DNA from: Rhodospirillales bacterium
GTDB lineage: Bacteria; Pseudomonadota; Alphaproteobacteria; Rhodospirillales; Defluviicoccaceae
Assembly (NCBI GenBank): GCA_016712375.1
Contig: JADJRE010000014.1
Span: forward strand, 17,768-81,767
Length of the DNA: 64,000 nucleotides
Direction of reading: 5' to 3'
In this document: one piece after another, positions 1 through 23,748 of the stretch
Position numbering within the stretch: the first letter of the stretch is position 1
Layout of the letters: the number at the start of each line of letters is the position of its first letter
Notes under the pieces: generated by a model
Database searches by the model: none
What the model was told of the DNA's origin: nothing
The model's input: the letters and a program-made list of their open reading frames with translations, nothing else
Made by a program: the position numbers and the translations under genes

Positions 1-291
1 GCGGGAGACGGCAAACCAATCGGCACCCTGCAGCGCCACATCGCGCTCAAGATTGCCGGTCTCCGCACTCGCCATCTCAATCACGATGACGGCGCGGCTG
101 GATGAAAGGTCCGCCGCGTCGAAGCGGATGTCAGCGGTGAACCGTTTGAAGCGTCCCTCGAAGGGACTGCCCGCCTGGGTGGAAGCAAAGCCGAGTTGGC
201 TTCGTTCAGGATCGATCCGCCAGGTCGCGGCGAGTGCAACGCCGGCCAGCAGGATCGCGATAGCGGTGGCGGCAATGAGAAGGCGCTTCAC
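1..291 (-). CDS. YceI family protein, N-terminal part only (gene runs off the left edge)
   Basis: Not in the ORF track because there is no stop in the window. Reverse translation from GTG 291..289 gives VKRLLIAATAIAILLAGVALAATWRIDPERSQLGFASTQAGSPFEGRFKRFTADIRFDAADLSS. That is a signal peptide followed by a YceI-type N-terminus. The GTG overlaps the TGA of the upstream cytochrome b561 gene (GTGA). Confidence 0.6.
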   Translation of the reverse strand, partial: MKRLLIAATAIAILLAGVALAATWRIDPERSQLGFASTQAGSPFEGRFKRFTADIRFDAADLSSSRAVIVIEMASAETGNLERDVALQGADWFAVSR

Positions 292-911
292 AATCCTTGC
301 TCCTTTCGATCAGCGCCCGTTGCGGCGGCCCTACGCCAGGGCAGCATCCGGCCGATCGTATCATCCTTCAGCACGAACTGGTGCTTCAACGCGCCTGCGA
401 GGTGCAGCAGGAACAGCGTGAACATGGCGATCGCCAGCCACTCGTGAACCTCCTTCAGCGCGTCTTCGACCGGCTTCTTATCGCTGAGCGTGCTCAGGAG
501 CGGCAAGTGCGGCAGAGTGAAGGTGCCGAAGATCACCGTCGGGAAATTCCAGACCGAGGCCGAAACCATCATCCAGCCGGAGAAGGGCAGGACGAGCATG
601 AGCACATAGAAGCCGACGTGGGTGATCCGCGCCAGCGCCGCCTCCCACGCTTTGAGTGTCGGCAGAAGCGCCGGCGCGGGGTGCGTCAGCCGCCACAGCA
701 CGCGAAGGATGCTCAGGACCAGCACAACGATGCCGACCGACTTGTGCAACTGATAGAGCTCGAACTGCAGGCTGCTGCCGGGCGTCACTCGCACCATAAC
801 CGTGCCGAGAACCAGCATCCCGAGAATGGCAAGCGCAATCGTCCAGTGAAAGAATATCGCCACTGGGCCGTAGCGTTCTCCGGTCTGCCTCGGTGGTCGT
901 GGTGAATGCAT
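288..911 (-). CDS. cytochrome b561 family protein (CybB-like)
   Basis: ORF 288..995, started here at the internal ATG 911 (MHSPRPP...). Multi-pass membrane protein with histidines in predicted helices (FFHWTIA, LHKSVG, THVGFY, HEWLA), typical of cytochrome b561. Pairing with YceI is the usual arrangement. Confidence 0.8.
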   Translation of the reverse strand: MHSPRPPRQTGERYGPVAIFFHWTIALAILGMLVLGTVMVRVTPGSSLQFELYQLHKSVGIVVLVLSILRVLWRLTHPAPALLPTLKAWEAALARITHVGFYVLMLVLPFSGWMMVSASVWNFPTVIFGTFTLPHLPLLSTLSDKKPVEDALKEVHEWLAIAMFTLFLLHLAGALKHQFVLKDDTIGRMLPWRRAAATGADRKEQGL

Positions 912-1151
912 CTTCGGGTGCTCCCCGGCTTTCCAGCGCTTGAAGTCAGGACATAGAGCGCTTGTGCCTGATTTGCCGGAGCCAGTTGCCGGCATACAGT
1001 GTTACCAGAAGCATGAACGGTGTAGATCGGCTGCGCGCTCGGTCTCGTATACGTCCGACATGTGGTCTGGGATCGACGCGGCGACAGATCCGTCGTATGC
1101 GGCGGGGCCTTGGACTTAACTCAGCAAACCGAAGAGAGAGAGCGTCGCCGC

Positions 1152-3023
1152 ATGGAAAATCCGCCACCCGGCATCCGGATCGGCGCCCGCCGAGCTGTTT
1201 TCTTCGCCCTCGTCACGGCAACGATCATCCTTGCGGTTGCCGCCTTCGTCATCGCCTTCCTGCCGGGCGGCCTCACGGCGGTCGAAATTGCGATGCTGGG
1301 GCTGTTCACCTTGAACCTGCCTTGGCTGGCCATCGGCCTATGGAATGCAGTTGTTGGCTGGGCGCTGCTGCGGCGGCCGCATGTCGATCTGTCGCGGATC
1401 CTGCCATTGGCTGGTTTGCATGGGCCGCTGCCGCCTGGGGGCCGAATTGCTCTTGTCATGCCGGTACACGACGAGGATCCGAGCACCGTTCTCATCATGC
1501 TGCGGACAACCCTTGCAAGCCTGGATGCGACCGGACGGAGCGCGCCTTTCGATGTTTTCGTGTTGAGCGATACGCGTGACGACCGAATTGCTGCGCGAGA
1601 GGAGGCGATGTTCAACGCCTGGAGGCGGGTGGACGCGCGGCCGGAGCGGCTGCACTATCGAAGGCGGCCTGACAACGCCGGCTTTAAAGCCGGCAACATT
1701 CGCGAGTTCTGCGATCGCTGGGGAGCTCATTACGATCACATGATCGTGCTGGATGCAGACAGCGTGATGACCGGCCCGCTAATCCTGCGGCTGGTGGGAC
1801 TGATGCAGGCAAATCCTCGCGTGGGAATTCTGCAAACCCTCATCGTGGGTCTGCCGTCGACGGGCGGGTTCGCGCGCATGTTCCAGTTTGGCATGCGCCA
1901 CGGTATGCGTGCCTACAGCACGGGCAGTGCCTGGTGGCAAGGCGACGCCGGCCCCTACTGGGGGCACAACGCTATTGTTCGGCTTCGTCCTTTTATCGAG
2001 CACTGCCGGTTGCCGCGCGTCCCCGGCCGGCCGCCGCTGGGCGGGGTCGTCCTCAGCCACGACCAGCTCGAGGCGGTGCTGATGCGGCGGGCTGGGTGGG
2101 AAGTCCGAGTGCTGCCGGTCGAGGACGGCAGTTTCGAGGCCAATCCGCCGACGCTGCTTGATTTCAGCAAGCGCGATTTGCGCTGGTGCCACGGCAACAT
2201 GCAATACACCCGACTGCTGGGGTTGGCGGCGTCCTACCGTCTCGGCCGGCTACAGATGATCCTCGCAATACTCATGTATACCGGTGCTCCGTGTTGGCTT
2301 GCATTCTGCTTGCTCGGCTTGGCGCAGCCGGCGATGAGCGCGATGGGGCTGCCGCCAGTGGTGATGATCGGAGAGCCGGCATGGCTGCCGGAGGGCGGCC
2401 TGCCGGCGGTCGGCATCATGCTGTTCTTCGGCATCGTCGGCATGAGCTGGGCGCCTAAGCTGTTTGGTGTTGTGCACGCGCTGGGCGACCCTTTGGTTCG
2501 CCGCAGTTATGGCGGCGGCGGCCGGCTCCTGGCCGGCGCGGGCGTGGAGTTGCTGTTCTCGACATTGCTCGCTCCGGTCGTCGCCACCGCGCAGACGATC
2601 TTCATGGGCGGCCTGCTGATCGGCCGACGGCTGAAGTGGAGGGCACAGAAGCGGGCGGACCGCAGCGTTGCGTGGGGGGAGGCGGCGCGGCGGCTCTGGC
2701 CACAGACCGTGCTGGGGCTGATCTTCCTGTTCGCTCTGGCGCTGCTGTTGCCAGCAGCACTCCCTTGGGCCTCGCCAATGTTCGCAGGCCTGCTGCTCGC
2801 CGTGCCCTTCGCCGTTCTGACCGCCAGCCCTGGATTTGGAACATGGCTGGAGCGCGTCGGGCTATGCGCCACACCCGAAGAGCTGCAACCTTCCCCCGAG
2901 GCAAGGGCAGTCTGCCCGTGGCTGCCCGCCGCGTCGCCGCTTTCGCTGGCGCCCTGCGGTGCCGAAGGACGTGGCGGCGACCCGACGGCCGCAGCCCAAC
3001 CGGAGGCGTCGGCGGCATCCTGA
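1152..3023 (+). CDS. opgH: glucans biosynthesis glucosyltransferase OpgH/MdoH
   Basis: ORF 1062..3023. Likely start is ATG 1152 (MENPPPG). GT2 core motifs VLDADSVM, QGDAGPYWGHNAIVR and LSHDQLEAVLMRRAGWEVR, flanked by TM segments, match OpgH. Confidence 0.85.
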   Translation: MENPPPGIRIGARRAVFFALVTATIILAVAAFVIAFLPGGLTAVEIAMLGLFTLNLPWLAIGLWNAVVGWALLRRPHVDLSRILPLAGLHGPLPPGGRIALVMPVHDEDPSTVLIMLRTTLASLDATGRSAPFDVFVLSDTRDDRIAAREEAMFNAWRRVDARPERLHYRRRPDNAGFKAGNIREFCDRWGAHYDHMIVLDADSVMTGPLILRLVGLMQANPRVGILQTLIVGLPSTGGFARMFQFGMRHGMRAYSTGSAWWQGDAGPYWGHNAIVRLRPFIEHCRLPRVPGRPPLGGVVLSHDQLEAVLMRRAGWEVRVLPVEDGSFEANPPTLLDFSKRDLRWCHGNMQYTRLLGLAASYRLGRLQMILAILMYTGAPCWLAFCLLGLAQPAMSAMGLPPVVMIGEPAWLPEGGLPAVGIMLFFGIVGMSWAPKLFGVVHALGDPLVRRSYGGGGRLLAGAGVELLFSTLLAPVVATAQTIFMGGLLIGRRLKWRAQKRADRSVAWGEAARRLWPQTVLGLIFLFALALLLPAALPWASPMFAGLLLAVPFAVLTASPGFGTWLERVGLCATPEELQPSPEARAVCPWLPAASPLSLAPCGAEGRGGDPTAAAQPEASAAS

Positions 3024-3064
3024 GAGTTCGTCATGGACGCCGGACTGGATAAGGGATCCGACCA

Positions 3065-3871
3065 ATGCCGCTATGGGAGGACATGGTCACTACCGACTTC
3101 GCCGCACTCGATCCGGCGCGTGCTGTGGCCTTACTGCCAGTGGCGGCGATTGAGCAGCACGGCCCTCACCTGCCACTTGGGACCGATGCGATCCTGTGTG
3201 ATGCGATCCTCGATCGCACGCAGAACATCGTCGCGGATCCGGCGTCACTCCTGCGGCTGCCGACGCAGCGTGTGGGGCTGAGCCCCGAGCACGCCGGCTT
3301 CCCCGGCACGCTGGTCTTGCGCGCCGAGTCGCTGCTCACGGCGTGGACCGAGATTGGCCTGTCAGTGGCCGCTGCTGGCGTGCGCAAGTTGGTGCTCTTT
3401 AACACCCACGGCGGCCAGGGCGGCCTTGTCGATATTGTGGCGCAGCAGCTGCGTTGCCGGGCGGGCATGCTGGTCGTGCGCTGCAGTTCCTATCGCTTCG
3501 CTCTGCCAGAAGGTTGGGTCCCACCGGACGAGCTCCGTTTCGGCTTACATGGCGGGCTAATCGAAACCTCGATGATGCTGGCCGCGGCACCAAGTCTCGT
3601 CAGGCGTGGATTCATGCACTCGTTCCACTCGCCTGCGGCAGACTGGGAGGCTGCCCATCCGGGTCTGGAGGTGGAGGGGGAGAGCGGCATAGCCTGGTGT
3701 GCCCAGGATCTCGGGATCGATGGCGTTACCGGAGATGCTTCAGCAGCGACGGCGGAACTGGGTCAGCGGTTGCTGGACCATTATGCATCGCGCCTGGCAA
3801 AGACAATCGCCGCAGCCCGCTCACTGGTGTTTCCGCCGCAATCTCAACCGGACGCGCCGTCGAGCAGGTGA
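3065..3871 (+). CDS. creatininase-family amidohydrolase
   Basis: LPVAAIEQHGPHLPLGTD and NTHGGQ motifs are characteristic of the creatinine amidohydrolase / formamide hydrolase family. Confidence 0.8.
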   Translation: MPLWEDMVTTDFAALDPARAVALLPVAAIEQHGPHLPLGTDAILCDAILDRTQNIVADPASLLRLPTQRVGLSPEHAGFPGTLVLRAESLLTAWTEIGLSVAAAGVRKLVLFNTHGGQGGLVDIVAQQLRCRAGMLVVRCSSYRFALPEGWVPPDELRFGLHGGLIETSMMLAAAPSLVRRGFMHSFHSPAADWEAAHPGLEVEGESGIAWCAQDLGIDGVTGDASAATAELGQRLLDHYASRLAKTIAAARSLVFPPQSQPDAPSSR

Positions 3872-4970
3872 TGGGCGCGTGTCCGCTTCGCAGTCATGTA
3901 ACGCTGGTTCTCGGGGGTTATGCAGCCGAGCAGCGGCAGCCGGTCGACAATAGTGATACCGGCTGCAGCGAGCGCTTTGATTTTGTCCGGGTTGTTTGTC
4001 AGTAGTCAGATCCGGTCATAGCCAAGCGATCGAAGCATTGTAGCGGCGATGCCGTACTGCCGCTCGTCCGGGCTGAATCCGAGTTGCAGGTCGGCGTCGA
4101 TGGTATCCCGCCCTCGGTCCTGCAAAGAATAGGCGCGCAACTTGTTGGCCATGCCGATCCCTCGTCCCTCCTGGGCCAGATACAGCAGCACGCCGCCGCC
4201 AAGCGCTTGCAGCGAGGCGATTGATTGCCGTAGCTGATCTCCGCAGTCGCACCGGAGGCTGCCAAAAACATCCCCGGTGAGGCAGGCAGAATGTAAACGC
4301 ACCGGTACGCCAGCCGAGCAATCAGGCGTGCCGATCAGGATTGCCAGATGTTCGCGGCAGGCGACGGCCGTTCGAAAACAAACGAAGCGAGCGTCGGGTG
4401 CGTCGGCGAGCGGAATATGAGCCTCGCTGATCTTAACCACGCTCTCGTCCAGGCTCTCGAACAGCCGGGTCAGGCCTTTACGGGTGACGGCATGCAGCGC
4501 TCTGCAGGCGACCAACGTCTCGAACTCCCCGCTTGCATCGGGACAACGGGGATCTTCAGGGCAACGGGCAACAGCAAAGCGGTTTTCAACAGCCGGACGA
4601 TCAGCGAATCACCCACGCTTCCTGGGAAACCCGGCACTGCAACAACCAGATCGTCGCCATCCGATCTTTGCGGATCGGACGTCGCCATCTTCATCATATC
4701 GAGCAGCGCCATGTCGGCCGATAGCGGCAGCGCGAAGACACCGGACACCGCTGCCTTATCAACGCCCAGCGCGATTGCCCGCTCTCCTGAGACCAGCAGC
4801 CACGACTCGCCAGCTCCAAACTGGCGAAGATGCAAACAAAGTGCCGGAGTAATGGTTTCCAGCGGTGCGTAAATCATCGCGGCCGCCTCGTCGACCATCA
4901 CGACCGGGCGGCCGCAGCGGATTTCGTCGATGCCGCGTTCCGCCGCCAACAACTCGGGATCGAACTTCAT
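3844..4970 (-). pseudogene. ribA: GTP cyclohydrolase II-like gene (degenerate RibB-like N-domain plus RibA domain), disrupted by one frameshift and one in-frame TGA
   Basis: ORFs 4470..4970 and 4006..4515 are consecutive parts in different frames. The RibA core reads VRLHSACLTGDVFGSLRCDCGDQL...YLAQEGRGIGMANKLRAY. After ...LRSLGYDRI there is a TGA at 4006..4008. The same frame then continues LLTNNPDKIKALAAAGITIVDRLPLL...HHLLDGASG to a stop at 3844. Confidence 0.75.
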
Positions 4971-5093
4971 GAACTCTTCAACGCTTTCAGGATCGGGTCG
5001 TTTCCCGATGGCTGCACTTTTCTACGATGAAAGGTTGATCGCGGGCTATCCTCTTCGAGCGATTGGAGTGATAAACGAGCAAAAGGACGAGAA

Positions 5094-5942
5094 TTGGACC
5101 TTCCCGAAGCAGAGTGGCGATTGCTGCTGAAGCTGGCTGCCGAGGCACGGGCGGCCCGGGACTTGTCGCCGCGCGGCGCCCTGTACCCCGAGCGCGCTGG
5201 CGACGCGCTGGCAACGCTATCGCATCCGCTTTCACAGCACATTTACGCGCCACTGATCGCACGCATCGCCGCGGGCCCGCTGGTCATCGCTCAGGTTGGA
5301 CAAAGTCTCGACGGCCGGATTGCCACAGCCGGGGGTCACTCCCACTACGTCAACGGCATTGCCGCGCTTACTCACCTTCACCGCCTACGGGCACTGGTGG
5401 ATGCCGTGGTGATTGGCGCAAGCACAGCGGTGCTTGACGACCCACAGCTTACCACGCGCCTGGTGGAAGGTCCCAATCCCGTGCGTGTCGTCCTCGATCC
5501 GCATCGTCGCGTGCCGCGAACGGCCCGGATGTTCGACGAAGCCGCCCCTGCGATTGCCGTTCGTGCCGCCGCATCGGATGCGATGGAAGGCGATGGCGTG
5601 CTCCTGCTGCCGGCTGAGCATGGCATCTTCGGGCCGGCCACCGTGCTCGATGGGCTGGCTGAACGCGGCTTACGCACCGTGCTCATCGAAGGCGGCGGCG
5701 AGACGATCTCGGCGTTTCTACGAGCGGAGCGGGTGGATCGCCTGCATGTACTGCTTGCACCATTGCTGATCGGTCCCGGCCGGGAGGCATTCAAACTTCC
5801 GCCACTCGAGCGGCTGGATGCGGCACGGCGTTTCCGGATGACCGCGCAATTTCTTGGCGACGATGTGCTGCTCGACTGCGATCTTCGAGCGGCCAATGAA
5901 AGTGCAGCCGATGCTTACCAACACGCCAGCACGTCCCGATGA
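5094..5942 (+). CDS. RibD C-terminal-domain reductase (pyrimidine reductase / DHFR-like fold), no deaminase domain
   Basis: VIAQVGQSLDGRIAT, VDAVVIGASTAVLDDPQLTTRL and VLIEGGGETISAFL...VDRLHVLLAPLLIG match the RibD_C reductase family. Divergent from the ribA-like gene. Confidence 0.75.
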   Translation: MDLPEAEWRLLLKLAAEARAARDLSPRGALYPERAGDALATLSHPLSQHIYAPLIARIAAGPLVIAQVGQSLDGRIATAGGHSHYVNGIAALTHLHRLRALVDAVVIGASTAVLDDPQLTTRLVEGPNPVRVVLDPHRRVPRTARMFDEAAPAIAVRAAASDAMEGDGVLLLPAEHGIFGPATVLDGLAERGLRTVLIEGGGETISAFLRAERVDRLHVLLAPLLIGPGREAFKLPPLERLDAARRFRMTAQFLGDDVLLDCDLRAANESAADAYQHASTSR

Positions 5943-6730
5943 CCGACGCGCGCCCGCAAGCAGCGCGCCTTGATTGCTTCGAACCGGCGCGCCATCCAGG
6001 AGTTGATCGCCTCCGTAGCTTCCGGCTCTATCTCGCGCGCGGCCTCCGCCCAGCCGCTCACCAGCAGCTGCAGGAGGTGCGCATCGCCCGGCGTGAGCCG
6101 CCAATCGCTTCGTGCTGTCCGCACGACCGCGCCAGACGCCGCGGCAATCCGCACCAGGGCTGCCCGCGCGCCCGGTCCGAGGGCGTGTCCGAAGCCCTTG
6201 TCGGCGTGCTGGTGCTGGTCGAAAAGCGCGAGTGCGACGGCGTCGAAAGGATCAGGCGGGTGCAGTACCACCCGGCCATCATAGGTGAGCGCCGCATAAA
6301 AAGTGACACCGGGACACGCGGCGGCTCCCAGCAATTGCCGGCACCAATCTTCGGAAACGAGATCAAATAGCGCCGAGGCGGTGATCAAATCGCCGCCGCG
6401 CAGCAATTCGGGCAGGCGCCGTGTGTCGGCTAAATCCGCACAGAGCCGCCGGACGACGATCTGTTTCCCCCTCCGGGGCAGGCGCGTTGCTGACGCGAGC
6501 AGTGTCGCATCGTTGTCAATCAACCTCCAGCTTTGCGGAGACGGAAGTAGAGGTGCCAGAAGGCGTAGGGTGCCGCCGGTTCCTGCGCCGAGATCGACGA
6601 TGTGGAGCGGCTTCCCGTACGCTTGCCGGCCCGCCAGTCGATGTCGAACCGCACGTAACAGCAATGGAGCTCGAGCCTGCCGGTCGGCGCCCGCACGCAG
6701 CGCCAGCCACTCCGCCGAGAAGCCGCTCAC
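5915..6730 (-). CDS. class I SAM-dependent methyltransferase
   Basis: C-terminal 272 codons of ORF 5915..7237. SAM motif I is IVDLGAGTGGTLRLL. The proposed GTG start at 6730 overlaps the TGA of the upstream glycosyltransferase (GTGA). The Arg/Pro-rich N-terminal 169 codons of the track ORF are out-of-frame overlap with that gene. Confidence 0.7.
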   Translation of the reverse strand: MSGFSAEWLALRAGADRQARAPLLLRAVRHRLAGRQAYGKPLHIVDLGAGTGGTLRLLAPLLPSPQSWRLIDNDATLLASATRLPRRGKQIVVRRLCADLADTRRLPELLRGGDLITASALFDLVSEDWCRQLLGAAACPGVTFYAALTYDGRVVLHPPDPFDAVALALFDQHQHADKGFGHALGPGARAALVRIAAASGAVVRTARSDWRLTPGDAHLLQLLVSGWAEAAREIEPEATEAINSWMARRFEAIKARCLRARVGHRDVLACW

Positions 6731-7776
6731 CGGAGGCAAAGGTCGTCGATCGCGGAAAGCAGATCCCGGCCGACGTCGTTCCAGGAGCGCCCTTGCGTCG
6801 GTCGGTGGCTGCGGGGCCGCCGACTGACGAGGTGGGGGCGGAGCGCCCGGGCGAGGCTGCGCGGGTTGCCCGGAGGTACCAGCGAGTGCCGTGATCCGGT
6901 AGCGGCCTCGGCAATGGCGCCGGCGTCGCTCGCGACGATGGGCAAACCGTAAGCCGCAGCCTCGGCCACGACGATCCCGTATCCTTCGTAATGGGATGGC
7001 AACACAAACAGGTCGGCGTTGCGGTACTCCGACGGAAGCTGCGTCGGCGTCACGGGACCGACCAGGGCGACCCGGCGTTGTAATCCAAGAGCCCGCGCCA
7101 GCCGACGCAGGCGCCCGGCAAACGCTCGGTCTCGCGGTGGTCCGACCAGCCGCAGTTGCCATCGCAGGCAGCGGAGTTCTCCCAGTGCCCGCAGCAGCAC
7201 GTCTTGGCCCTTGCGCGGCGTCAAAGCGGCAACGCAAAGCAATGTAGGCACCTCTGCGGGTCGCCGGCGGGTGCCGAGCCCGCCCATTCGACTCAAATCT
7301 ACACCCGGTCGGACGACGCGAACGCGCTCCGACGGAACCGCGAAGTCGCTGAGGCGGTGTGCAGTCGTCGCACTGGTCACGATAACGCCCTGAATCAGCG
7401 CCAGCGCCAGGGCACGTCGCTCGCGCTCGAATAGCCGATCACGAGCGTCCTTGGTGAGTCCGGTCTCGTCCGCGAGCGGATGATGCACGAGAACAACAAG
7501 GCTGAGCCGCCGGCTGGCAGCCTCGAACACCTCGAGCAAAGGCGAGAACGCCAGGCCGTCGATCAGCAGCGCGGCGCCTTCGGGCAACGAGGCAACGGCC
7601 CGCTCCGCTGCGGACACGGTCGGCACGCTCGGTTCTGGCCAAGCGCCGGGCACAACGATCAGGCTTGCGAGGCGGCCGGCGCGGCGCAAAGCGTGCAGCA
7701 CCCACCGGTCGTAGACAAAGCCGCCGGTCGGCGTGTCGGGCGGGCCTGGCAACAAGACGTGAAGGCAGACGTTCAC
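6727..7776 (-). CDS. glycosyltransferase family 4 (GT-B, Glycos_transf_1 type)
   Basis: C-terminal signature LFVLPSHYEGYGIVVAEAAAYGLPIVASDAGAIAE. About 349 aa. Confidence 0.8.
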   Translation of the reverse strand: MNVCLHVLLPGPPDTPTGGFVYDRWVLHALRRAGRLASLIVVPGAWPEPSVPTVSAAERAVASLPEGAALLIDGLAFSPLLEVFEAASRRLSLVVLVHHPLADETGLTKDARDRLFERERRALALALIQGVIVTSATTAHRLSDFAVPSERVRVVRPGVDLSRMGGLGTRRRPAEVPTLLCVAALTPRKGQDVLLRALGELRCLRWQLRLVGPPRDRAFAGRLRRLARALGLQRRVALVGPVTPTQLPSEYRNADLFVLPSHYEGYGIVVAEAAAYGLPIVASDAGAIAEAATGSRHSLVPPGNPRSLARALRPHLVSRRPRSHRPTQGRSWNDVGRDLLSAIDDLCLR

Positions 7777-7783
7777 CCGCTTC

Positions 7784-8185
7784 TTACCTCAGCGCCCCCT
7801 CGTAAGCAGCCCAAGCAATGTGCGATTCGTGTAGCGTTACCCGGAGCGCGTCGGCTCCCGTCGCTTGCTCGCCAAGCTTGCCCCCATCGATCGCAGCGCG
7901 CATTCGCAGAAATACCCAATGGGCGAGACGTTCGGTGGTAGTGACGACATTGGCAAATTCGGGCAATTCATCGAGGTTGCGATACTCGACGCTGGCGAGG
8001 ATCGTCCGTAGCGCTGATGATGCCGCGCCGATATCGACGACGATGCCGTCGGCATCGAGCTCGCTCCTGCGGAACTCGACATCGACGACATAAGTCGCAC
8101 CGTGAAGCCGTTGCGCGGGCCCGAACACCTCGCCGCGCAGGCTGTGAGCGATCATCATGTGGTCGCGGACACACACCGTGAACAC
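7784..8185 (-). CDS. 6-pyruvoyl-tetrahydropterin synthase (PTPS/QueD) fold protein, atypical active site
   Basis: MMIAHSL...RLHGATYVVDVEF...DIGA...NLDELPEF follows the PTPS/QueD layout (AAH ... LHGH), but reads HGAT where QueD has HGH. 133 aa. Confidence 0.7.
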   Translation of the reverse strand: MFTVCVRDHMMIAHSLRGEVFGPAQRLHGATYVVDVEFRRSELDADGIVVDIGAASSALRTILASVEYRNLDELPEFANVVTTTERLAHWVFLRMRAAIDGGKLGEQATGADALRVTLHESHIAWAAYEGALR

Positions 8186-8200
8186 TTAGATACCTCCGAT

Positions 8201-9173
8201 TCAATAACGAATGCGATGACACAGAGCCGGCAAAGCTCCCGAGGAGAGGTTATTCATCACTTCAGGCAGCGTTTCGAAGGGGCTCTCACCCGAGATCAGA
8301 CGATCGAGGGCATCGTCACAGAGCAGATGCAACGCTAGTTCGAGCCGGCTGCGGCGAGTATGACGGCCGCGGCGTGACGGGGCGACGGCACCGACCTGCG
8401 AAGAGCGTAGCACGAGGCGGCGCGAGTGAAATGCTTCACCCAACGGCAATGTGACTTCCCGGTCGCCGAACCAGCTCATCTCCAGGATCAGCGCTCGAAA
8501 CCGGCAATCTTGAGTGCCGTGAGCAGACCGCGCGGATTGCCGCTGGCGTGGATGACGACATTAAACGGGCTTAGGTCTTCAACCTTGGTTGTGAATGCCA
8601 GGCCGAGGTCCGCTGTCACCTCCGCCTTGTTGTCGTCGGTGTCGTGGACGACGAGCGACACGCCGGGGATGCGCGAGGCCAGGCGCGCCACAAGCAGGCC
8701 GATAACGCCCGCGCCAATGACGCACACCCGATCGCCGGACAAGATTTCGGCGTCCCAGAGGCCATTTAGTGCCGTTTCCATATTCGCTGCCAGGATGGCC
8801 CGCTCAGGCGCCAGACCTTCGGGCAACGGTATCGCTGCCGCCGCCGGGACGACGAATCGAGTCTGGTGCGGATGAAGCACGAACACGGTGCGGCCGGCCA
8901 TTTCCGTCGGTCCTCGATAATTCGGCCGACAGCGGAGTAGCCGTACTTTACTGGTCCCGGAAAATCTCCTTCTTGAAAGGGCGAGCGCATCGTCTGGTAC
9001 TGGCTGGCCGGCACCCTGCCATGAAACACAATACTCTCTGTACCGCGGCTTATGCCGGTGAAAACGGTCTCGACCAGAACCTCCCCCGGGCTTGGTGCTG
9101 CAAGAGCCATAGTGCGAACTGCACCGCGTGACGGCTCTTCCACCCAGAATGCCCTCGCGTGACCGGCTGCCAT
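8201..9173 (-). pseudogene. medium-chain dehydrogenase/reductase (zinc-ADH fold), frame broken twice as sequenced
   Basis: Three consecutive pieces. ORF 8766..9173 gives the N-terminus (...[17 protein letters not shown]...[12 protein letters not shown]). The frame of ORF 8488..9450 gives the middle ([17 protein letters not shown]...VCVIGAGVIGLLVARLA...). ORF 8201..8479 gives the C-terminus. Breaks are near 8910 and 8490. Confidence 0.7.
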
Positions 9174-9329
9174 TGAGTTGTCTACCCCTGTCGCGGTCCG
9201 AGAAGCAGCGACCTGGGTTGCACCGGCCGCCTTCTTGCCAATCTAATGTGGAAATGTCAGCGTTCCAGAGGCTCACCCATGATCGCTCCATCTGCCATTG
9301 ACCACGCATTGCTCGTCTGCCGCCAAGGT

Positions 9330-9938
9330 GTGGCGCGCGGCTGGATGTTCGTGGCGGTAGCAGTTGCCGTCGTTCTTGCCGGAGCGCTGCAGCCGCTGCC
9401 GGCGCGCGCGGCAGCGCAGCGATACGTGATCGACCCCAATCATATGGCAATTGCCTTTTTTATCTCACACGTCGGCTATGCAAGAACGATGGGTCAATTC
9501 ACCAGAGCAGAGGGATCGTTCGTCTTTGATGACGAAGAGCCCTCGGTTCGTGACATCGACGTGCGGATCGACGCGGCGAGCGTTAACACGCAGCACCAGG
9601 CTCGCGACGGTCATCTGCGCAAAGAAGATTTTTTGTGGGTTGAGAAGTATCCCGATATCACTTTTCGCGGCACCAGCGCGAAACAGACGGGGCCAAGGAC
9701 CGGCGAAATCACGGGAGACCTGACTCTTCGCGGCGTGACCAGGCCGGTCACGCTCGATGTCACCTGGAACAAGAGCGGCGAGTATCCGTTCGGCGACAAG
9801 CATTGGGCGGCGGGATTTTCAGGGCGGACGACGATAAAGCGAAGCGATTACGGGATGACCTACGCGCTGGTCGGCGGGTTGGTGGGCGATGAGGTTGAGA
9901 TCATCCTGGAATTCGAGGCGATACGTCAGCCGACATGA
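9330..9938 (+). CDS. YceI family periplasmic protein
   Basis: ORF 9246..9938. A signal peptide from GTG 9330 or ATG 9345 (MFVAVAVAVVLAGAL..ARAAAQ) is followed by YVIDPNHMAIAFFISHVGYARTMGQF...GDLTLRGVTRPVTLDV, typical of YceI. Confidence 0.8.
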   Translation: MARGWMFVAVAVAVVLAGALQPLPARAAAQRYVIDPNHMAIAFFISHVGYARTMGQFTRAEGSFVFDDEEPSVRDIDVRIDAASVNTQHQARDGHLRKEDFLWVEKYPDITFRGTSAKQTGPRTGEITGDLTLRGVTRPVTLDVTWNKSGEYPFGDKHWAAGFSGRTTIKRSDYGMTYALVGGLVGDEVEIILEFEAIRQPT

Positions 9939-9960
9939 AATTTTTGTACGTACCGATGAT

Positions 9961-10725
9961 GTGAGCGTGAACCTGCAGACCGCTTGGGGCGTCAGCCGGT
10001 CGCTGGCCATCTACTACGGGCGGCCGTGGCGCTTTCGCCGCATGGACGAGTTCTACAGCCGCTTCCTGCGCCCTGGCGACCTTGCCTTCGACATCGGTGC
10101 CCACCTCGGCAACCGGATCCGCTCATGGCGCAAGCTGGGAGCACGCGTTGTGGCTGTTGAGCCGCAGCCGGCCCTGGTTCGTATGCTTCGGCTGCTGTAC
10201 AGCCGCGATGCGGGAGTGCAGATTGTTGCCGCAGCGGTCGCCTCGGCGGAAGGCCGAGTGCCGCTCCATCTCAATCTTTCCAACCCGACCATTTCGACCA
10301 CCTCGGTGGATTTTATCGCGCATGCCGCCGAGGCACCGAGCTTCCACGGGCAGCGTTGGCAAAAGATAATTGAAGTCCGGGCAACAACGCTTGACGGTCT
10401 GATCGCTGGCTACGGCTCCCCACCCTTCGTCAAGATCGACATAGAAGGTTTCGAAGCGGAGGCGTTGCACGGACTGTCTCAACCCCCGCCGGCGCTCAGC
10501 GTCGAGTTCGTCCCGATGCACCGCAAGGTAATTGAAGCTGCCCTCGACCGGTTAGCTGAGCTAGGCGATTACCGTTTCAACGCGACGTACGGCGACGAAA
10601 TGCGGTTGTTGCATCCGCACCCTCTCTCCCTTGATGACATTCGACACTGGCTGCGCGATCAAGGCAGCGACGGCCCCGCCGGCGACCTTTATGCCGGGCT
10701 CGATCCGATACCGCTCTTTCGTTAA
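9961..10725 (+). CDS. FkbM family methyltransferase
   Basis: ORF 9889..10725. FDIGAHLGNRI...VVAVEPQP...LHLNLSNPTISTTS...VKIDIEGFE matches FkbM-type methyltransferases. The start is uncertain (in-frame GTG at 9961 or 9967). Confidence 0.7.
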   Translation: MSVNLQTAWGVSRSLAIYYGRPWRFRRMDEFYSRFLRPGDLAFDIGAHLGNRIRSWRKLGARVVAVEPQPALVRMLRLLYSRDAGVQIVAAAVASAEGRVPLHLNLSNPTISTTSVDFIAHAAEAPSFHGQRWQKIIEVRATTLDGLIAGYGSPPFVKIDIEGFEAEALHGLSQPPPALSVEFVPMHRKVIEAALDRLAELGDYRFNATYGDEMRLLHPHPLSLDDIRHWLRDQGSDGPAGDLYAGLDPIPLFR

Positions 10726-10793
10726 TTGCCGATCCGTCATTGGTGCAAGCAGTAGAGACACTCTACCCAGCTATCCGACGTGATGGCACATGC

Positions 10794-12150
10794 TTACGTG
10801 CTCGAATCGATGAGGTGGATAAACGAGCCGATGGTGCGGCCTGCCGCGAGACCCGTGGTCCCCAGCGCCCGGCCGGCCGCGTCAGCGCAGGCGAACAGCG
10901 GCACGCCTGGGCCTTCGCGCACGGTGCGGGCGAAATGGAACTCGTGGCCGCCGAAGGATGCGCCAGCCAGACCCAACGGGCCGTCACCGCACAGCGTGGC
11001 GCGACGGTACCCCAGGTGGAGGCGGCGTTCCGCGAATGTCGTTTCCAGAGGCAGCAGCCCTGCCATTGCGTGCCGGTGCCCCTCAGCGTCGATCAGGCCA
11101 TCACCCATACCATGTAGCCGCCGCATTCACCGAAGACGACGGCACCGCGCGTCGCCGCCTGCCTGAGGCCACCCAGGAAACGGGCGTTGCTGGCGATAAT
11201 GCCGGCGTGCAGTTCAGGATAGCCGCCGGGGAGATAGACGGCATCCGCGTCGTCAGGCGGTGCTTCGTTGGCCAGCGGTGAAAACACCTCGATATCGGCA
11301 CCCGCGGCCCGCCAGCCGTCGATCACCAAGGGATAGCGGAAGGCGAAGGCGGCATCGGCGGCGCACGCTATTCGCTGACCCAGGGGCCGCACAGGTATCG
11401 CGGCGGTGTTCGTCGCAGCTCCGGCCTTCATCCTTCCAGGCTTCATCAATGTCCGCAACCGCTCGGTGTCAACGTGCTCCGCGACGACGTTTGCGGCACG
11501 CTGCAAAAAAACGGGAAGGTCGGGAAGCTCGATCGCCTGTACGAGGCCGAGATGGCGTTCCTGCAAGGCAAGTCCCTCGACGCGGGGGATGCAGCCGAGT
11601 ACCGGAATCAGTGGCAGGGTTTTCTCGCAAGCCTCCCGCAGTAATGCCGCATGCCGATCGCCGGCGACACGGTTGAACACAACCGCCGCTATCTCGAGTC
11701 CCGGCCGGTGCGTGGCGAATCCTCGAACGACCGCTGCTGCGCTTGCTGCCTGGGCCCGCACATCGACCACCAGCAGCACTGGCCATCCGGAAGCGGCGGC
11801 GATATCAGCGGTGGAGCCGCGGTCAACGGTAGCCCCGTCGAACAGCCCCATCACCCCTCGCAAATAACAATGTCGCCGGCCTCCTCCAGCCGTGCCGCGG
11901 CCGCACTGAGTGTCTCGGCTCGCATCGCCCAGGGATCGAGGTTAAGGCAGTGCTGCCCAGAGGCGGCGGTGTGGAACGCTGGATCGATGTAGTCCGGGCC
12001 CACCTTTGCCGAAGCGACGCGTAGCCCGGATCGAGCCCAGTGTCGGATCAGCCCCAGCGTGAAGACGGTCTTACCGCTGCCGGAAGCGGGCGCCGCGACG
12101 ATCAAGCCTGGTGCGCAACTTCGAGGCGCGCCGGGGGAAGCGTGGCTCAC
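10794..12150 (-). pseudogene. cobB: cobyrinate a,c-diamide synthase CobB/CbiA, frame broken twice as sequenced
   Basis: Pieces are 11851..12150 (APASGSGKTVFTLGL...VGPDYIDPAFH...VICEG), 11093..11863 (VMGLFDG...GECGGYMV) and 10794..11126 (GDGLIDAEGHRHAMAGLLPLETTF...GHEFHF). Breaks are near 11855 and 11105. The GTG start at 12150 overlaps the SCO gene stop (GTGA). Confidence 0.85.
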
Positions 12151-12809
12151 AGACGCTGTTTCAGCCGGTTTGCCACCTCCTCGGCGCTCAGGCCATGGCT
12201 GAAGAATTCGACAAACTTGCCGTCCGGCCCGATCAGATACGTTAGCGACGAATGATCGACAAGGTAGGTTTCGGGGGTGTCGCCCGGCGACTTGACGTAG
12301 AACACCCGGTATTCCTTGGCTACCGACGCGATCTGCTGCGGCGTGCCGGTAAGTCCGACCAGGCGCGGATGGAAGAAGCGCACGTAGTCCTTGAGCTTTT
12401 CCGGCGAGTCGCGCTGGGGATCGACGCTGATCAGCACCGGCGTGATCTTCTCGGCCTGCTCGCCCAGCAGGTCAATGGCGCTGATGTTGCGTGTCAGCGC
12501 AGTCGGGCACACGTCCGGACAGAACGTGAAGCCGAAGTAGACGAGCAGCCAGCGGCCTTCGAAAGTCGCTTCGGTAACCGCTTGGCCATCCTGGTCGACG
12601 AGAGTAAAGGGCCCGCCGATTTTCATCGTACTCTCGCGTCCGGCGGTTTCAGCGGCAATCCCCGTAGACATGCCGCCGTACTGGCGGACGGCGAGGACGC
12701 CGACGGCGATCAGGACGACCAGCGCCAGAGAGATCGCTGCGCCGGGGAGACGATGTGGCCGGCGCGTGACCTCGGCTTTTTTTGGTCGATCAGGGGACTT
12801 GCTGCTCAC
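12147..12809 (-). CDS. SCO family protein (Sco1/SenC copper chaperone, thioredoxin fold)
   Basis: N-terminal TM anchor and the FGFTFCPDVCPT copper-binding CxxxC motif, followed by VDPQRD...H. Confidence 0.85.
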   Translation of the reverse strand: MSSKSPDRPKKAEVTRRPHRLPGAAISLALVVLIAVGVLAVRQYGGMSTGIAAETAGRESTMKIGGPFTLVDQDGQAVTEATFEGRWLLVYFGFTFCPDVCPTALTRNISAIDLLGEQAEKITPVLISVDPQRDSPEKLKDYVRFFHPRLVGLTGTPQQIASVAKEYRVFYVKSPGDTPETYLVDHSSLTYLIGPDGKFVEFFSHGLSAEEVANRLKQRL

Positions 12810-12840
12810 CCGTCACCTCATGTGCTGGAGGATTGGTAGA

Positions 12841-13629
12841 TCAGATGATGGTTCGCCAAGCGAGGTAGGAAAGCGCTGCGGCGTTGATCAGCATCAAGGC
12901 TGGCATCAGCCGCAATGCTGCGCCCCGGAACTGCCGGCCGGCAACATGACCGGCAAAACCAACGGCGACGAGCGATGGCACGGTACCGAACGTGAAAGCC
13001 AGCATCGCCAGCGCACCTGCCAACGGCCGGCCACTCGCCGCGGCGGCAGCCAGCGCACCATACAGCAGGCCGCAGGGAAGAAACCCGAGCGCAACTCCGA
13101 TCAAGTAGCCGCGCCAGCCGATCGGACGGGCGAAGAGGGGACGGACCAGGCTGCGAACTCGGTTCGACCATCCGCTGTCTCCAGTGTCGCCGGGAAGACG
13201 GACAGGCAGTCGAACCGCCCAACGTCCACTCACTTGACGCACCGCATAGCCAAAAAAGAACGACGCTGCCAGGACCAACAACGCGGCGGACAGCCAACGC
13301 AGTCCGGTGACGTGGATCATGCCGGCAGCGAGAGCTGCCGCCGCCGCGCCGAGTGCCGCATAAGTGGTGGCGCGACCGAGATGGTACGGGACCAGCGCCG
13401 CGCCGGCCAGCCGGTGCCACTCGTGCATCTGTGCCGCCGGCCGGTCTTCCAGGCGCGAGACCGTCTGCGCCAGGACGAACGGCCCGCACATACCGACACA
13501 GTGCGTAATGCTGCCGAGCAGCCCGGCCATGAACAAGCTGGCAAGCAAACCTTCGTGTTCACCAACCGCGGCGCGGCAGTGCGCGATGCCGGTACTGAGG
13601 AGCTGCAGAAGGAGCGGGTCCGTTTCCAT
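12841..13629 (-). CDS. COG2836/DsbD_2-type integral membrane protein (HCxGMCGP motif)
   Basis: Six or more hydrophobic segments. The GSITHCVGMCGPF motif is typical of this TauE/DsbD-like family. Confidence 0.6.
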   Translation of the reverse strand: METDPLLLQLLSTGIAHCRAAVGEHEGLLASLFMAGLLGSITHCVGMCGPFVLAQTVSRLEDRPAAQMHEWHRLAGAALVPYHLGRATTYAALGAAAAALAAGMIHVTGLRWLSAALLVLAASFFFGYAVRQVSGRWAVRLPVRLPGDTGDSGWSNRVRSLVRPLFARPIGWRGYLIGVALGFLPCGLLYGALAAAAASGRPLAGALAMLAFTFGTVPSLVAVGFAGHVAGRQFRGAALRLMPALMLINAAALSYLAWRTII

Positions 13630-13711
13630 GGCGCAGCTTCAGATTCGGGCGAAATCATCCCGATGTCAAAGGCCGTGCGCGCCGAACACCAACTTCGGCT
13701 ACAATCGCCCC

Positions 13712-14806
13712 ATGCGGGAAACAGAAGCGCCGGCGCCGCTGCGCAAAGGCTGGACGACCGGCACATGTGCTACCGCCGCTGCAGCCGCGGCTTGGCAGGC
13801 GCTGCTGACCGGTGCTTTCCCAGATCCGGTAACGATTTCCTTGCCGCGCGGTGGCACCGTGGCGTTATCGCTCGCCCGCGCCGAGTTACGGAAGGGGGAA
13901 GCCACAGCCGGCATCGTCAAGGACGCCGGCGATGATCCAGACGTCACTCACGGTGCCCTGATCACGTCCACCGTCGTCCCCGGTCCGCCGGGCAGCGGCG
14001 TTGTCTTCCGCGCCGGCGAGGGCGTCGGCATCGTCACGCTGCCCGGCCTGCCGCTGCCGCCGGGCGAGCCGGCGATCAATCCAGGCCCGCGGTCGATGAT
14101 CGTCCGCAGCTTGACCGAGATCGCCGCAGAGCATGGGGTGGCTGCCGATGTCATCGTCACCATCGCCGTCGAAGGCGGCGCGGCGCTTGCGGGGAAGACG
14201 CTGAACGGCCGGCTCGGCATCGTCGGCGGTCTGTCGATCCTGGGGACCACCGGCATCGTCGTGCCGTTCTCGTGTGCTGCGTGGATCCACTCGATCCACC
14301 GTGGCATCGACGTTGCTCGCGCCGCCGGACTGACGCACCTAGCCGCCGCTACCGGCAGCACCTCGGAAGCGGCGGTGCGTGCCCTCTACGGGTTGTCCGA
14401 TCAATCGCTGATCGACATGGGCGATTTCGCCGGCGGCACGCTGAAGTATCTGCGCAGTCATCCGGTGCCGCGGCTGACGCTGGCGGGCGGTTTTGCCAAG
14501 CTGGCGAAGCTTGCGCAAGGTCATCTGTTTCTTCACTCGTCGAAATCCCGCGTCGACATTGCGGCGTTGGTGGCGACACTGGCCAGCTTGGGAGCGCCGA
14601 CCTCGGCGCTGGCGGAGGCGGCGGCCGGAGGTTCGGCGGCTCACGTGCTTGCCATCGCTCAGTTACAGGGCCTGCCCCTCGCCGACAAGCTCGCGGCGGA
14701 CGCTCGCACCGTGGCGTTAGCGACCCTCGGCGGTGGGACGGCGGTCGAGGTGATCGTCTTCGATCGCGCTGGCACGCTGATCGGCCGCGCCGGTTTCGAT
14801 GCCTGA
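13712..14806 (+). CDS. cbiD: cobalt-precorrin-5B (C1)-methyltransferase CbiD
   Basis: From ATG 13712 within ORF 13364..14806. LRKGWTTGTCATAAAAAA, IVKDAGDDPDVTHG, GEPAINPGPRSMI and GLSILGTTGIVVPFSCAAW are CbiD hallmarks. Confidence 0.85.
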   Translation: MRETEAPAPLRKGWTTGTCATAAAAAAWQALLTGAFPDPVTISLPRGGTVALSLARAELRKGEATAGIVKDAGDDPDVTHGALITSTVVPGPPGSGVVFRAGEGVGIVTLPGLPLPPGEPAINPGPRSMIVRSLTEIAAEHGVAADVIVTIAVEGGAALAGKTLNGRLGIVGGLSILGTTGIVVPFSCAAWIHSIHRGIDVARAAGLTHLAAATGSTSEAAVRALYGLSDQSLIDMGDFAGGTLKYLRSHPVPRLTLAGGFAKLAKLAQGHLFLHSSKSRVDIAALVATLASLGAPTSALAEAAAGGSAAHVLAIAQLQGLPLADKLAADARTVALATLGGGTAVEVIVFDRAGTLIGRAGFDA

Positions 14807-15554: not shown

Positions 15555-15657
15555 CAACCGCTGCGCGAGTGCACAGCGCTTGCTTTCGTGTTCTCACTCG
15601 CTCACATCGTGCGCTGCCGCTGCGTGGAGAGCGCACGAACGGAGGGAGAGTGTGGTG

Positions 15658-22288: not shown

Positions 22289-22321
22289 CGGCTGCGTGTC
22301 CAGCGGACTCGGTTACTCTGC

Positions 22322-23507: not shown

Positions 23508-23748
23508 CGCTTGGTCCCTTGCCTTCGAGCGTCGTTGCCGTGAGCGGCGGTCTCGTGCCACCGCTTCCCCGGCTGGTCATCGCCTCCGGCCGGGCTCGGG
23601 TGCGGGACTATAGGGACCGGGCGGGCCTCTGTCACCAGCCGGTCATGGGGAGCGGCGTTGCTGCTCTGCAACTCGCGCCCGGTTGTCGATGGTGAACTGG
23701 ATCAGTTGATCTGGTTCGAACGCCAGGAAAATTATTCGCACCGCGATA

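Follow-up and report, generated by a model that had tools for sequence, protein, structure and literature searches.

What does a bacterium make with a creatininase-family hydrolase, a GTP cyclohydrolase II, a RibD_C reductase, an S-adenosylmethionine (SAM)-dependent methyltransferase, a GT4 glycosyltransferase, a PTPS-fold protein and an oxidoreductase, all encoded side by side? The question is raised by positions 3065–9173 of a 64,000-nucleotide stretch of contig JADJRE010000014.1 (assembly GCA_016712375.1), referred to here as the window. A reading of the letters alone, the original prediction, had seen in these seven genes a conserved-looking cluster for a methylated and/or glycosylated pteridine-like compound and had framed it within the Rhizobiales; the source is a metagenome-assembled genome (MAG) of the Rhodospirillales, as which the identical methyltransferase protein is recorded at NCBI. 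By motifs, homology and gene neighbourhood, this locus belongs to the conserved PTPS-IV (SCO6650/SCO6655-type) cluster, for which no product has been characterised. What is new here is the near-universal coupling of this cluster to a membrane transferase. We propose that it builds a pterin-like polyol phosphate from GTP, decorates it with a sugar and a methyl group and delivers it to the envelope, a proposal that, we believe, stands about evenly between right and wrong.

Identity of the cluster

The PTPS-fold protein of the window reads ...EVFGPAQRLHGAT... and contains the sequence FGPAQ, in which F21, G22, A24 and Q25 are conserved in at least 98% and P23 in at least 90% of 87 sequences. FGPAQ is the signature of the subfamily PTPS-IV (AGeNNT 2017, PMC5445326), whose gene neighbourhoods contain PF00925 and PF01872 (PMC5445326, supplement). 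Both families are present in the window, which thereby shares with the subfamily the FGPAQ signature, the loss of the Cys-x-HGH catalytic motif and the PF00925 and PF01872 neighbours. In comparison with rat PTPS (1B66), nematode PTPS (2G64) and E. coli QueD (4NTK), FGPAQ stands in place of the Cys-containing CxxxHGH/CxxxxxHGH/ExxHGH motifs: the catalytic Cys is replaced by Ala24, the last zinc His of HGH by Ala30, and the Asp-His pair by Glu67-Tyr68. The full set of a catalytic PTPS or QueD, that is three zinc histidines and the catalytic cysteine, with Asp-His in PTPS-II, is therefore missing. His14, His28, the TTTE ring-binding motif and Glu120 are retained and are nearly invariant in the same 87 sequences.

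The closest solved structure is 3D7J, the “uncharacterized protein SCO6650” of Streptomyces coelicolor (E 2.3e-45 over residues 1–132, 57% identity). According to Spoonamore et al. 2008, SCO6650 reportedly has no zinc and no PTPS activity and keeps its pterin-binding residues; the PTPS-IV subfamily of COG0720 is reportedly also treated by Phillips et al. 2012. The gene neighbourhood can likewise be followed into Streptomyces, where the layout is a divergent CDP-alcohol phosphatidyltransferase gene, then oxidoreductase, PTPS-IV, GT4, methyltransferase and UPF0104 flippase-like genes, then creatininase, then GTP cyclohydrolase II. The S. coelicolor version is SCO6648–SCO6655, the last of which we take to be the GTP cyclohydrolase II homologue (all numbering other than that of SCO6650 is our assumption). 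It has in common with the window the operon order, the 4-nt overlap of the GT4 and methyltransferase genes, and the creatininase and cyclohydrolase II, at identities of 57% (oxidoreductase), 57% (PTPS-IV), 39% (GT4), 37% (methyltransferase), ≈31–33% (creatininase) and ≈47–49% (cyclohydrolase). It differs in having a CDP-alcohol phosphatidyltransferase and UPF0104 where the window has an MdoH-like family-2 glycosyltransferase (GT2), in lacking RibD_C, and in its cyclohydrolase, which is short (221–229 aa, no N-terminal domain) with Met at the switch position, whereas that of the window is long and has Tyr. Together with a rearranged gene order, the MdoH-like partner, RibD_C and the long Tyr-type cyclohydrolase set the window variant apart.

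The cluster is thus not new: it is the PTPS-IV neighbourhood of PMC5445326 and PMC5041015 and the SCO6650/SCO6655 cluster of S. coelicolor. PTPS-IV is said there to act in F420 synthesis, from unpublished data (Zallot et al. 2016, PMC5041015); neither paper gives a product (PMC5041015, PMC5445326), and the PTPS-IV literature consulted makes no mention of an association with GT4, methyltransferase, CDP-alcohol transferase or MdoH-like genes. A literature search, in which several key papers lay outside the searchable text, found no paper characterising the cluster. The earlier failure to match the genes to a characterised pathway is borne out: the PTPS catalytic residues are lost, RibD_C comes without a deaminase, and the set is neither that of toxoflavin nor that of the pterin glycosides.

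Conservation of the gene association

A profile built from 22 aligned homologues of the cluster methyltransferase and scanned against one genome per GTDB species found relatives in at least 574 species. The cluster ranges over the Alpha-, Beta- and Gammaproteobacteria, the Acidobacteriota and Streptomyces, with hosts that include Bradyrhizobium, Xanthobacteraceae, Pseudolabrys, Rhizobiaceae, Methylobacterium, Defluviicoccus, Geminicoccaceae, Nisaea, Xanthomonas, Steroidobacter, Burkholderiaceae and Vicinamibacterales. The best 80 of the at least 574 loci were searched with the intact proteins by tblastn. GT4 is found in 78 of them, the PTPS-fold protein in 74, the oxidoreductase in 73 and RibD_C in 72, followed by the MdoH-like GT2 (56), GTP cyclohydrolase II (48), the FkbM methyltransferase (41, normally just 3′ of the MdoH-like gene) and the creatininase (37). 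These loci keep to one constant order, oxidoreductase–PTPS–GT4–methyltransferase, a core operon to which GTP cyclohydrolase II and creatininase genes are often added.

The second sample consisted of metagenome contigs anchored on PTPS-IV, with 27 loci of at least 9 kb. The oxidoreductase is present in 25 of these, GT4 in 23, the methyltransferase in 22, a CDP-alcohol phosphatidyltransferase in 22, RibD_C in 18, the cyclohydrolase in seven and the creatininase in three; MdoH is present in none. The oxidoreductase gene adjoins that of PTPS-IV in 73/80 genome loci and 46/51 metagenome loci, and PTPS-IV itself is 57–70% identical across Streptomyces, Myxococcota and Alphaproteobacteria, with at least 8000 protein clusters at 90% identity matched. 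The association is far above chance. What looked conserved from one genome does indeed recur as a unit in hundreds of species. An all-against-all clustering of open reading frames (ORFs) for additional conserved neighbours returned mostly antisense shadows of known genes and no further conserved soluble genes.

Some related loci (numbered L001 and so on) carry features of their own. Two polytopic membrane proteins, with ≈9–10 predicted helices and outside any Pfam or NCBIfam family, accompany the cluster in variable position, with equivalents in ≈26–33 Xanthobacteraceae-type loci only (L028, 13540–15066, plus strand; L082, 14278–15657, minus strand); ORF clustering found neither in the window. 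Locus L093 (13596–17191) runs through oxidoreductase, PTPS-IV, CDP-alcohol transferase, flippase-like and RibD_C genes, then a sulfotransferase, a sulfatase-like gene and GT4, a set that hints at a sulfated form of the product. A search for riboswitches and leader RNAs found none in positions 1–14000 of the window, and a riboswitch search beside the cluster in seven related loci found none except a c-di-GMP-I riboswitch in L094 (14232–14327, minus strand; 62 bits, gathering score 35). It precedes a He_PIG/RibLong adhesin-like gene, behind which the cluster RibD_C gene stands in the same orientation, and so the cluster is possibly tied to c-di-GMP or surface behaviour in this one locus.

Link to membrane enzymes

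Membrane partners were counted in the 70 genome loci whose sequence reaches 3 kb or more upstream of the oxidoreductase gene. An MdoH-like GT2 is found in 50 of these, in 45 directly upstream and divergent of the oxidoreductase; a CDP-alcohol transferase is found in 12, in five of them in the same divergent slot; eight have neither, and none has both. The reading in the original prediction left out this link, which holds in 62 of the 70 loci. The MdoH-like protein of the window scores 556 bits with NF003958 (cutoff 419) and 504 bits with NF003962 (cutoff 328). Despite the rearranged gene order of the window, its MdoH-like gene remains next to the cluster, 41 nt before the creatininase gene and in the same orientation, with the FkbM and YceI-like genes on the opposite flank; the MdoH-like and creatininase genes also adjoin on one strand in L009–L011.

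Myxococcota-type and other loci have the oxidoreductase/PTPS-IV pair (50% and 69% identity to the window) with a CDP-alcohol phosphatidyltransferase, which is most similar, though weakly, to the families of archaetidylinositol-phosphate and PIP synthases, and with the UPF0104 flippase-like protein, a recurrent neighbour of the cluster. As the metagenome counts for the two transferases make clear (22/27 vs 0/27), the phosphatidyltransferase is the general partner and the MdoH-like enzyme its alphaproteobacterial replacement. YceI adjoins the cluster in the window, in L009, L015, L048, L052, L061 and L094, and in 5/27 metagenome loci. This link to the MdoH-like GT2, the CDP-alcohol transferase, the flippase-like protein and YceI suggests that the product is destined for the envelope and is not a soluble cofactor.

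The glycosyltransferase fits this direction. The nearest solved relatives of GT4 are MshA (inositol-3-phosphate GlcNAc transferase), sucrose-phosphate synthase, PimB and PimA, which use polyol or sugar phosphates or phosphatidylinositol. A CDP-alcohol phosphatidyltransferase beside an MshA/PimB/PimA-like GT4 recalls the logic of the phosphatidylinositol/PIM system (PIP synthase plus PimA) and of MshA in mycothiol synthesis, and by analogy suggests a polyol-phosphate acceptor that would be lipid-linked and glycosylated. That system differs in that our cluster has no inositol-phosphate synthase, the polyol would be GTP-derived, and the window has the MdoH-like GT2.

Alternatively, the product might be a soluble pterin glycoside or ribityl-pyrimidine cofactor or pigment that stays in the cytoplasm, like cyanopterin or tepidopterin, with membrane neighbours that are unrelated or regulatory. 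The same enzyme families would serve, 8/70 loci have no membrane partner in reach, and pterin glycosides with methylated sugars occur in cyanobacteria, where the genes (PTPS-II and a group-1 glycosyltransferase) similarly combine a PTPS-fold protein with a GT-B glycosyltransferase. From those genes the window differs in a PTPS-fold protein without the residues for 6-pyruvoyl-tetrahydropterin and in having no GTP cyclohydrolase I or sepiapterin reductase. Against a soluble product, the membrane transferase adjoins the cluster in 62/70 genome and 22/27 metagenome loci, across phyla and rearranged orders, is often divergent from the operon or co-operonic with a cluster gene, and is joined by recurring flippase-like and YceI lipid-binding proteins. 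We therefore consider a soluble product unlikely.

A different destination within the envelope would be the osmoregulated periplasmic glucans: the cluster would supply an aglycone or substituent, GT4 would glucosylate it, the MdoH-like protein would elongate and export, and FkbM would methylate the glucan. This overlaps with the envelope route that we propose. The MdoH-like protein lies above the NCBIfam MdoH cutoffs, and its gene stands beside the cluster in 56/80 loci in two arrangements, followed by FkbM in 41. A Pfam scan of the ≈45 larger ORFs of the window turned up no MdoG family, and the locus is therefore probably not of the classical opgGH kind. Substituents of periplasmic glucans in E. 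coli and Bradyrhizobium derive from phospholipid head groups, which would connect both variants of the cluster. In the wider diversity, however, the partner is the CDP-alcohol transferase and not MdoH, and glucan synthesis by the MdoH-like protein is presumed; as an explanation of the cluster, glucan decoration or priming is in our view distinctly unlikely.

The cytochrome b561 (YceJ-like) and YceI-like genes lie on opposite flanks of the MdoH and cluster block. In E. coli, YceJ-like and YceI genes form one operon, and in the window it looks as if the MdoH-plus-cluster block had been placed between them.

Motifs of the other cluster enzymes

The window cyclohydrolase matches E. coli RibA (2BZ0) at 2e-49 and keeps the zinc Cys residues (HSACLTGD...LRCDCG) and the equivalent of Tyr105 (NKLRAYSLQD); in the intact 375-aa protein of L001, PF00925 occupies residues 183–346. 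Tyr is found at this switch position in 49/49 proteobacterial cluster cyclohydrolases, and Met only in Streptomyces. From the work of Spoonamore et al. 2006, Tyr reportedly directs formate release and the Met variant stops at the formylated intermediate; by its motif, the window enzyme is expected to give the normal deformylated product. The N-terminal ≈170 aa have NCBIfam NF006456 (PRK08815) as their sole match. A degenerate DHBP synthase (RibB) was considered for this domain and is not supported, with no Pfam match even at E 10 and a PDB match to RibBA that spans the cyclohydrolase part only.

The creatininase falls below the cutoffs of the NCBIfam equivalogs for MftE and creatininase. The original prediction had hinted at ArfB, the archaeal formamide hydrolase of this family. 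Because the Tyr switch already leads us to expect a deformylated product, the creatininase is unlikely to be an ArfB-type deformylase; a partner cyclohydrolase that releases formylated FAPy is predicted neither in the window nor in the proteobacterial loci, and with Tyr in all cyclohydrolase partners we rejected this role for the Proteobacteria.

In the RibD_C protein, PF01872 covers residues 62–240, behind a 60-aa N-terminal extension without a domain match, and the deaminase domain is absent. Its nearest PDB entries are the 2,5-diamino-6-ribosylamino-pyrimidinone 5′-phosphate reductases 6P8C and 2AZN, it is about equally close to archaeal reductases and to bacterial RibD, and the hallmark motifs of ribosylamino-pyrimidine reductases are all conserved (73 sequences). 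Such an enzyme, lacking a deaminase, would yield a 2-amino ribityl compound, outside bacterial riboflavin synthesis. Toxoflavin synthesis (ToxA-E) resembles the cluster in its GTP cyclohydrolase II, RibD homologue and methyltransferase; ToxE, however, has the deaminase half that the window RibD_C lacks. Neighbourhood clustering gave no ToxC- or ToxD-like genes, although no search with the ToxC and ToxD sequences themselves was made.

These enzymes also invite comparison with the archaeal ArfA/ArfB/ArfC route, which likewise has a GTP ring-opening enzyme, a creatininase-family hydrolase and a reductase acting before deamination, so that the 2-amino group is kept. The cluster could accordingly be an archaeal-type route to a riboflavin or F420 precursor, with the creatininase as ArfB and RibD_C as ArfC leading to 5-amino-6-ribitylaminouracil, and PTPS-IV supplying a missing step such as deamination. 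The Streptomyces cyclohydrolase has the Met switch, whose reported formylated product (Spoonamore et al. 2006) would fit an ArfB-like partner, and the RibD_C protein is about as near to the archaeal reductases as to bacterial RibD. The placement of PTPS-IV in F420 synthesis from unpublished data (PMC5041015) speaks for the same route. However, the window cyclohydrolase is of type II with the formate-removing Tyr, and Tyr in 49/49 proteobacterial copies makes a formamide hydrolase unnecessary. The window further adds oxidoreductase, PTPS-IV, GT4, methyltransferase and membrane-enzyme genes, and the route has no place for GT4, the methyltransferase or the CDP-alcohol transferase, all of them more constant than the cyclohydrolase and creatininase. 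No CofD/FbiA, CofE or CofG/H occurs among the Pfam families of 16 annotated loci or the scanned window ORFs, the only F420-named match being a weak F420_oxidored hit on an unrelated NAD-binding protein in L096. We rate a riboflavin or F420 precursor as very unlikely.

The oxidoreductase had been named an MDR dehydrogenase. The MDR-like NAD-binding fold stands; the three canonical catalytic zinc ligands do not, with Ser, Tyr and Ser in place of Cys, His and Glu (motifs GISRGTE and KYGYS), and the protein stays below the Pfam gathering scores. Of what marks a zinc-dependent MDR enzyme, the Cys of GxCGxD and the His-Glu of GHE are missing, and ADH_zinc_N reaches 12.7 bits against a cutoff of 31.8. 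The relatives in the PDB are alcohol and polyol dehydrogenases at E 9e-9 and weaker, with weak NCBIfam matches to tdh and BchC. SxGxE, KYGY, PHQ, GxGxxG and Asp178 are conserved at 97% identity or above (K76 slightly lower), and the acidic Asp178 after GxGxxG is typical of NAD preference, which we would predict here.

For the methyltransferase, the AlphaFold model (pLDDT 93) has generic small-molecule methyltransferases as its nearest folds (TM-score at most 0.64), neighbours too generic to inform on the substrate class. The Streptomyces methyltransferase (L096, 9616–11055, plus strand) has an N-terminal low-complexity extension of ≈200 residues (Ser, Ala, Gly, Glu) that is not in the proteobacterial proteins.

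Proposed pathway

From the family memberships, motif states, gene order and co-occurrence described above we infer the following route to the proposed glycosylated and methylated envelope molecule. GTP would be converted to 2,5-diamino-6-ribosylamino-4(3H)-pyrimidinone 5′-phosphate by GTP cyclohydrolase II, either cluster-encoded or a housekeeping copy; this product is expected because the catalytic motifs are intact and Tyr stands at the switch position. RibD_C, going by its family, would reduce the ribosyl to a ribityl chain and leave the 2-amino group on, thereby diverting the intermediate from bacterial riboflavin synthesis. The oxidoreductase and PTPS-IV would then, as a pair, turn the intermediate into a pterin-like polyol phosphate. 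Most likely, the NAD-type oxidoreductase would oxidise the side chain back to a keto form (an aldose–alditol–ketose equivalent of the Amadori step) before the ring is closed, PTPS-IV presumably binding the 2-amino-4-oxopyrimidine via its retained residues and closing or processing the ring. The MshA/PimA-like GT4 would glycosylate the product and the translationally coupled methyltransferase would methylate it. Finally, as the gene neighbourhood suggests, the membrane enzyme would display the decorated molecule in the envelope or periplasm, as a phosphatidyl-linked head group made by the CDP-alcohol phosphatidyltransferase in most lineages, and by a route dependent on the MdoH/OpgH-like glucan synthase in the window and most Alphaproteobacteria.

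Several points weigh against this route. The searchable literature shows no biochemical test of any step except the Streptomyces GTP cyclohydrolase II, and to reduce and then oxidise, though chemically plausible, is redundant with a direct Amadori rearrangement. The Streptomyces clusters are without RibD_C, and Myxococcota-type loci have no GTP cyclohydrolase II, RibD_C, GT4 or methyltransferase nearby, so that by neighbourhood the pyrimidine origin of the substrate is not universal. The route leaves the creatininase without a role if the cyclohydrolase already deformylates, it does not account for a glucan synthase in place of a phosphatidyltransferase, and the MdoH association could come in part from shared ancestry within the Alphaproteobacteria. 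There is also the published remark, from unpublished data, that places PTPS-IV in F420 synthesis (PMC5041015).

Of the product suggested originally, we infer the chemical identity purely from the genes; as a reading of the gene set, a GTP-derived compound that keeps its 2-amino group, pterin- or ribitylpyrimidine-like, glycosylated and methylated, remains the most economical. A full version of our proposal goes further: a pterin-like head group made independently of GTP cyclohydrolase I and linked to lipid or glucan, which would be a previously undescribed class of envelope molecule. RibD_C reduction and re-oxidation by the zinc-less MDR protein would replace the Amadori step before PTPS-IV closed the ring, and a dedicated CDP-alcohol phosphatidyltransferase would join the head group to diacylglycerol phosphate, with an outward flip to follow; in the window variant, export would be on or through the OpgH-like glucan synthase. 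Taken as a whole, this full version is improbable.

Frame disruptions and sequence quality

The frame disruptions reported for the ribA-like and dehydrogenase genes are indeed present in the window sequence; they are probably artefacts, with both genes intact in 99.5% identical relatives. The ribA-like gene has a 1-bp deletion at ≈4526 (C5 to C4) and an in-frame TGA at 4006–4008, and is split into ORFs 4006–4515 and 4470–4970 (minus strand); the oxidoreductase gene has 1-bp deletions at ≈8494 and ≈8911. The exact window PTPS-fold protein is encoded on 12 public contigs. The longest of these, L001, matches the window at 99.46% identity across 11.5 kb, with 56 substitutions and six single-base gaps (window positions 4526, 8494, 8911, 10756, 11107 and 11853). 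In all six the base is absent in the window, and all are homopolymer contractions (C5 to C4, TT to T, CCC to CC, GG to G, TT to T, C5 to C4); of the three that lie outside the cluster, one is just beyond the FkbM gene and the others are in the neighbouring region of the cobyrinate a,c-diamide synthase. The intact 375-aa cyclohydrolase is found in six assemblies from two sequencing projects, which read ATT-CGA where the window reads ATC-TGA, and the full 324-aa oxidoreductase in five. Near-identical strains carry the cluster intact. Because all the indels are homopolymer contractions and the genes are intact in six assemblies, the disruptions are most probably consensus errors of the MAG, the nonsense codon being less typical of such errors than the indels. 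The CbiA/CobB-like gene is also split by two homopolymer contractions, which, with every indel being of this kind, suggests a general problem of consensus quality in the MAG. That the cluster is instead a decaying remnant, being lost here and without current function, would account for two pseudogenes with frameshifts, one also with a nonsense codon, but is barely credible when all six indels over 11.5 kb are homopolymer contractions, three of them beyond the cluster, and six 99.5% identical assemblies from two projects have intact genes.

Two overlapping ORF pairs elsewhere in the window (22322–23014/22738–23580 and 26220–27095/26699–28381) may be further cases of frame error.

Gene organisation and neighbouring genes

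Families were assigned to the window genes from an ORF listing with Pfam and NCBIfam profile searches (Table 1). The seven genes of the original prediction agree with these assignments in both coordinates and families, down to the ≈170-aa N-terminal part beside PF00925 in the cyclohydrolase and to PF01872 as the only match of the reductase, and RibD_C, PTPS, Creatininase and Glycos_transf_1 were all matched as named. The minus-strand genes from 9173 to 5915 are closely packed, with gaps of 15 nt and 7 nt and then a GTGA, in which the GT4 stop overlaps the GTG start of the methyltransferase. This coupling, also noticed originally, is the modal arrangement in related loci (41 have the 4-nt overlap; the remainder are mostly over-extended ORF calls).

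Table 1. Position, strand and family assignment of features in the window
Feature	Position	Strand	Family evidence
Cytochrome b561 (YceJ-like)	288–995	−	
MdoH/OpgH-like family-2 membrane glucosyltransferase	1062–3023	+	NCBIfam MdoH models, Pfam Glyco_trans_2_3
Creatininase-family metal-dependent amidohydrolase, 268 aa	3065–3871	+	Pfam PF02633, E 6e-63, full length
GTP cyclohydrolase II with ≈170-aa N-terminal domain, frame-broken	3844–4970	−	Pfam PF00925
Stand-alone RibD_C reductase, 282 aa	5094–5942	+	Pfam PF01872, E 3e-36
Class I SAM-dependent methyltransferase, 271 aa, cluster-specific family	5915–6730	−	Weak Methyltransf_25/12 matches
GT4 glycosyltransferase (retaining, GT-B), 349 aa	6727–7776	−	Pfam Glycos_transf_1 and Glyco_trans_1_4
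PTPS-IV tunnel-fold protein, 133 aa, SCO6650 orthologue	7784–8185	−	Pfam PF01242
MDR-like NAD-binding oxidoreductase, 324 aa if intact, frame-broken	8201–9173	−	Weak PDB/NCBIfam matches
YceI-like protein, N-terminal hydrophobic stretch resembling a signal peptide	9246–9938	+	Pfam PF04264, E 1.5e-47
FkbM-family methyltransferase	9889–10725	+	Pfam PF05050, TIGR01444
CbiA/CobB-like gene, split	≈11093–12450	−	
Cobalamin biosynthesis set	11093–23580		
ORF of 492 aa	28625–30103	−	BrnA antitoxin domain, C-terminal

The convergent pairs creatininase/cyclohydrolase (3844–3871) and RibD_C/methyltransferase (5915–5942) each have a 28-nt 3′ overlap, and both overlaps recur in the gene calls of near-identical contigs. 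Beside the cluster lies a cobalamin biosynthesis set with CbiA/CobB, CbiD, CobK/CbiJ, several tetrapyrrole methylases, CbiG, CbiC/CobH and CbiX, in which some ORFs resemble fusions (for example one of 891 aa with two methylase domains and CbiG, and one of 524 aa with CbiC at the C-terminus only). The 492-aa ORF has only the BrnA domain (residues 430–485), and is probably either an ORF called too long or a short antitoxin gene inside a larger spurious frame.

Significance

Few “known unknown” small-molecule clusters are as widespread or as strongly conserved as this one, whose Streptomyces enzymes were first studied in 2006–2008. Solving its function would give a role to several families now mis-annotated as “6-carboxytetrahydropterin synthase,” “zinc-binding dehydrogenase” and “creatininase,” and might uncover a new path by which pterins are made from GTP and a new head group, on lipid or glucan, of the bacterial envelope. 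Its coupling to membrane transferases directs the search to the lipid and periplasmic fractions and makes a long-standing question of function experimentally approachable. If the full version of our proposal were true, many soil bacteria and Streptomyces would carry a pterin-type group for redox chemistry or signalling that faces the periplasm.

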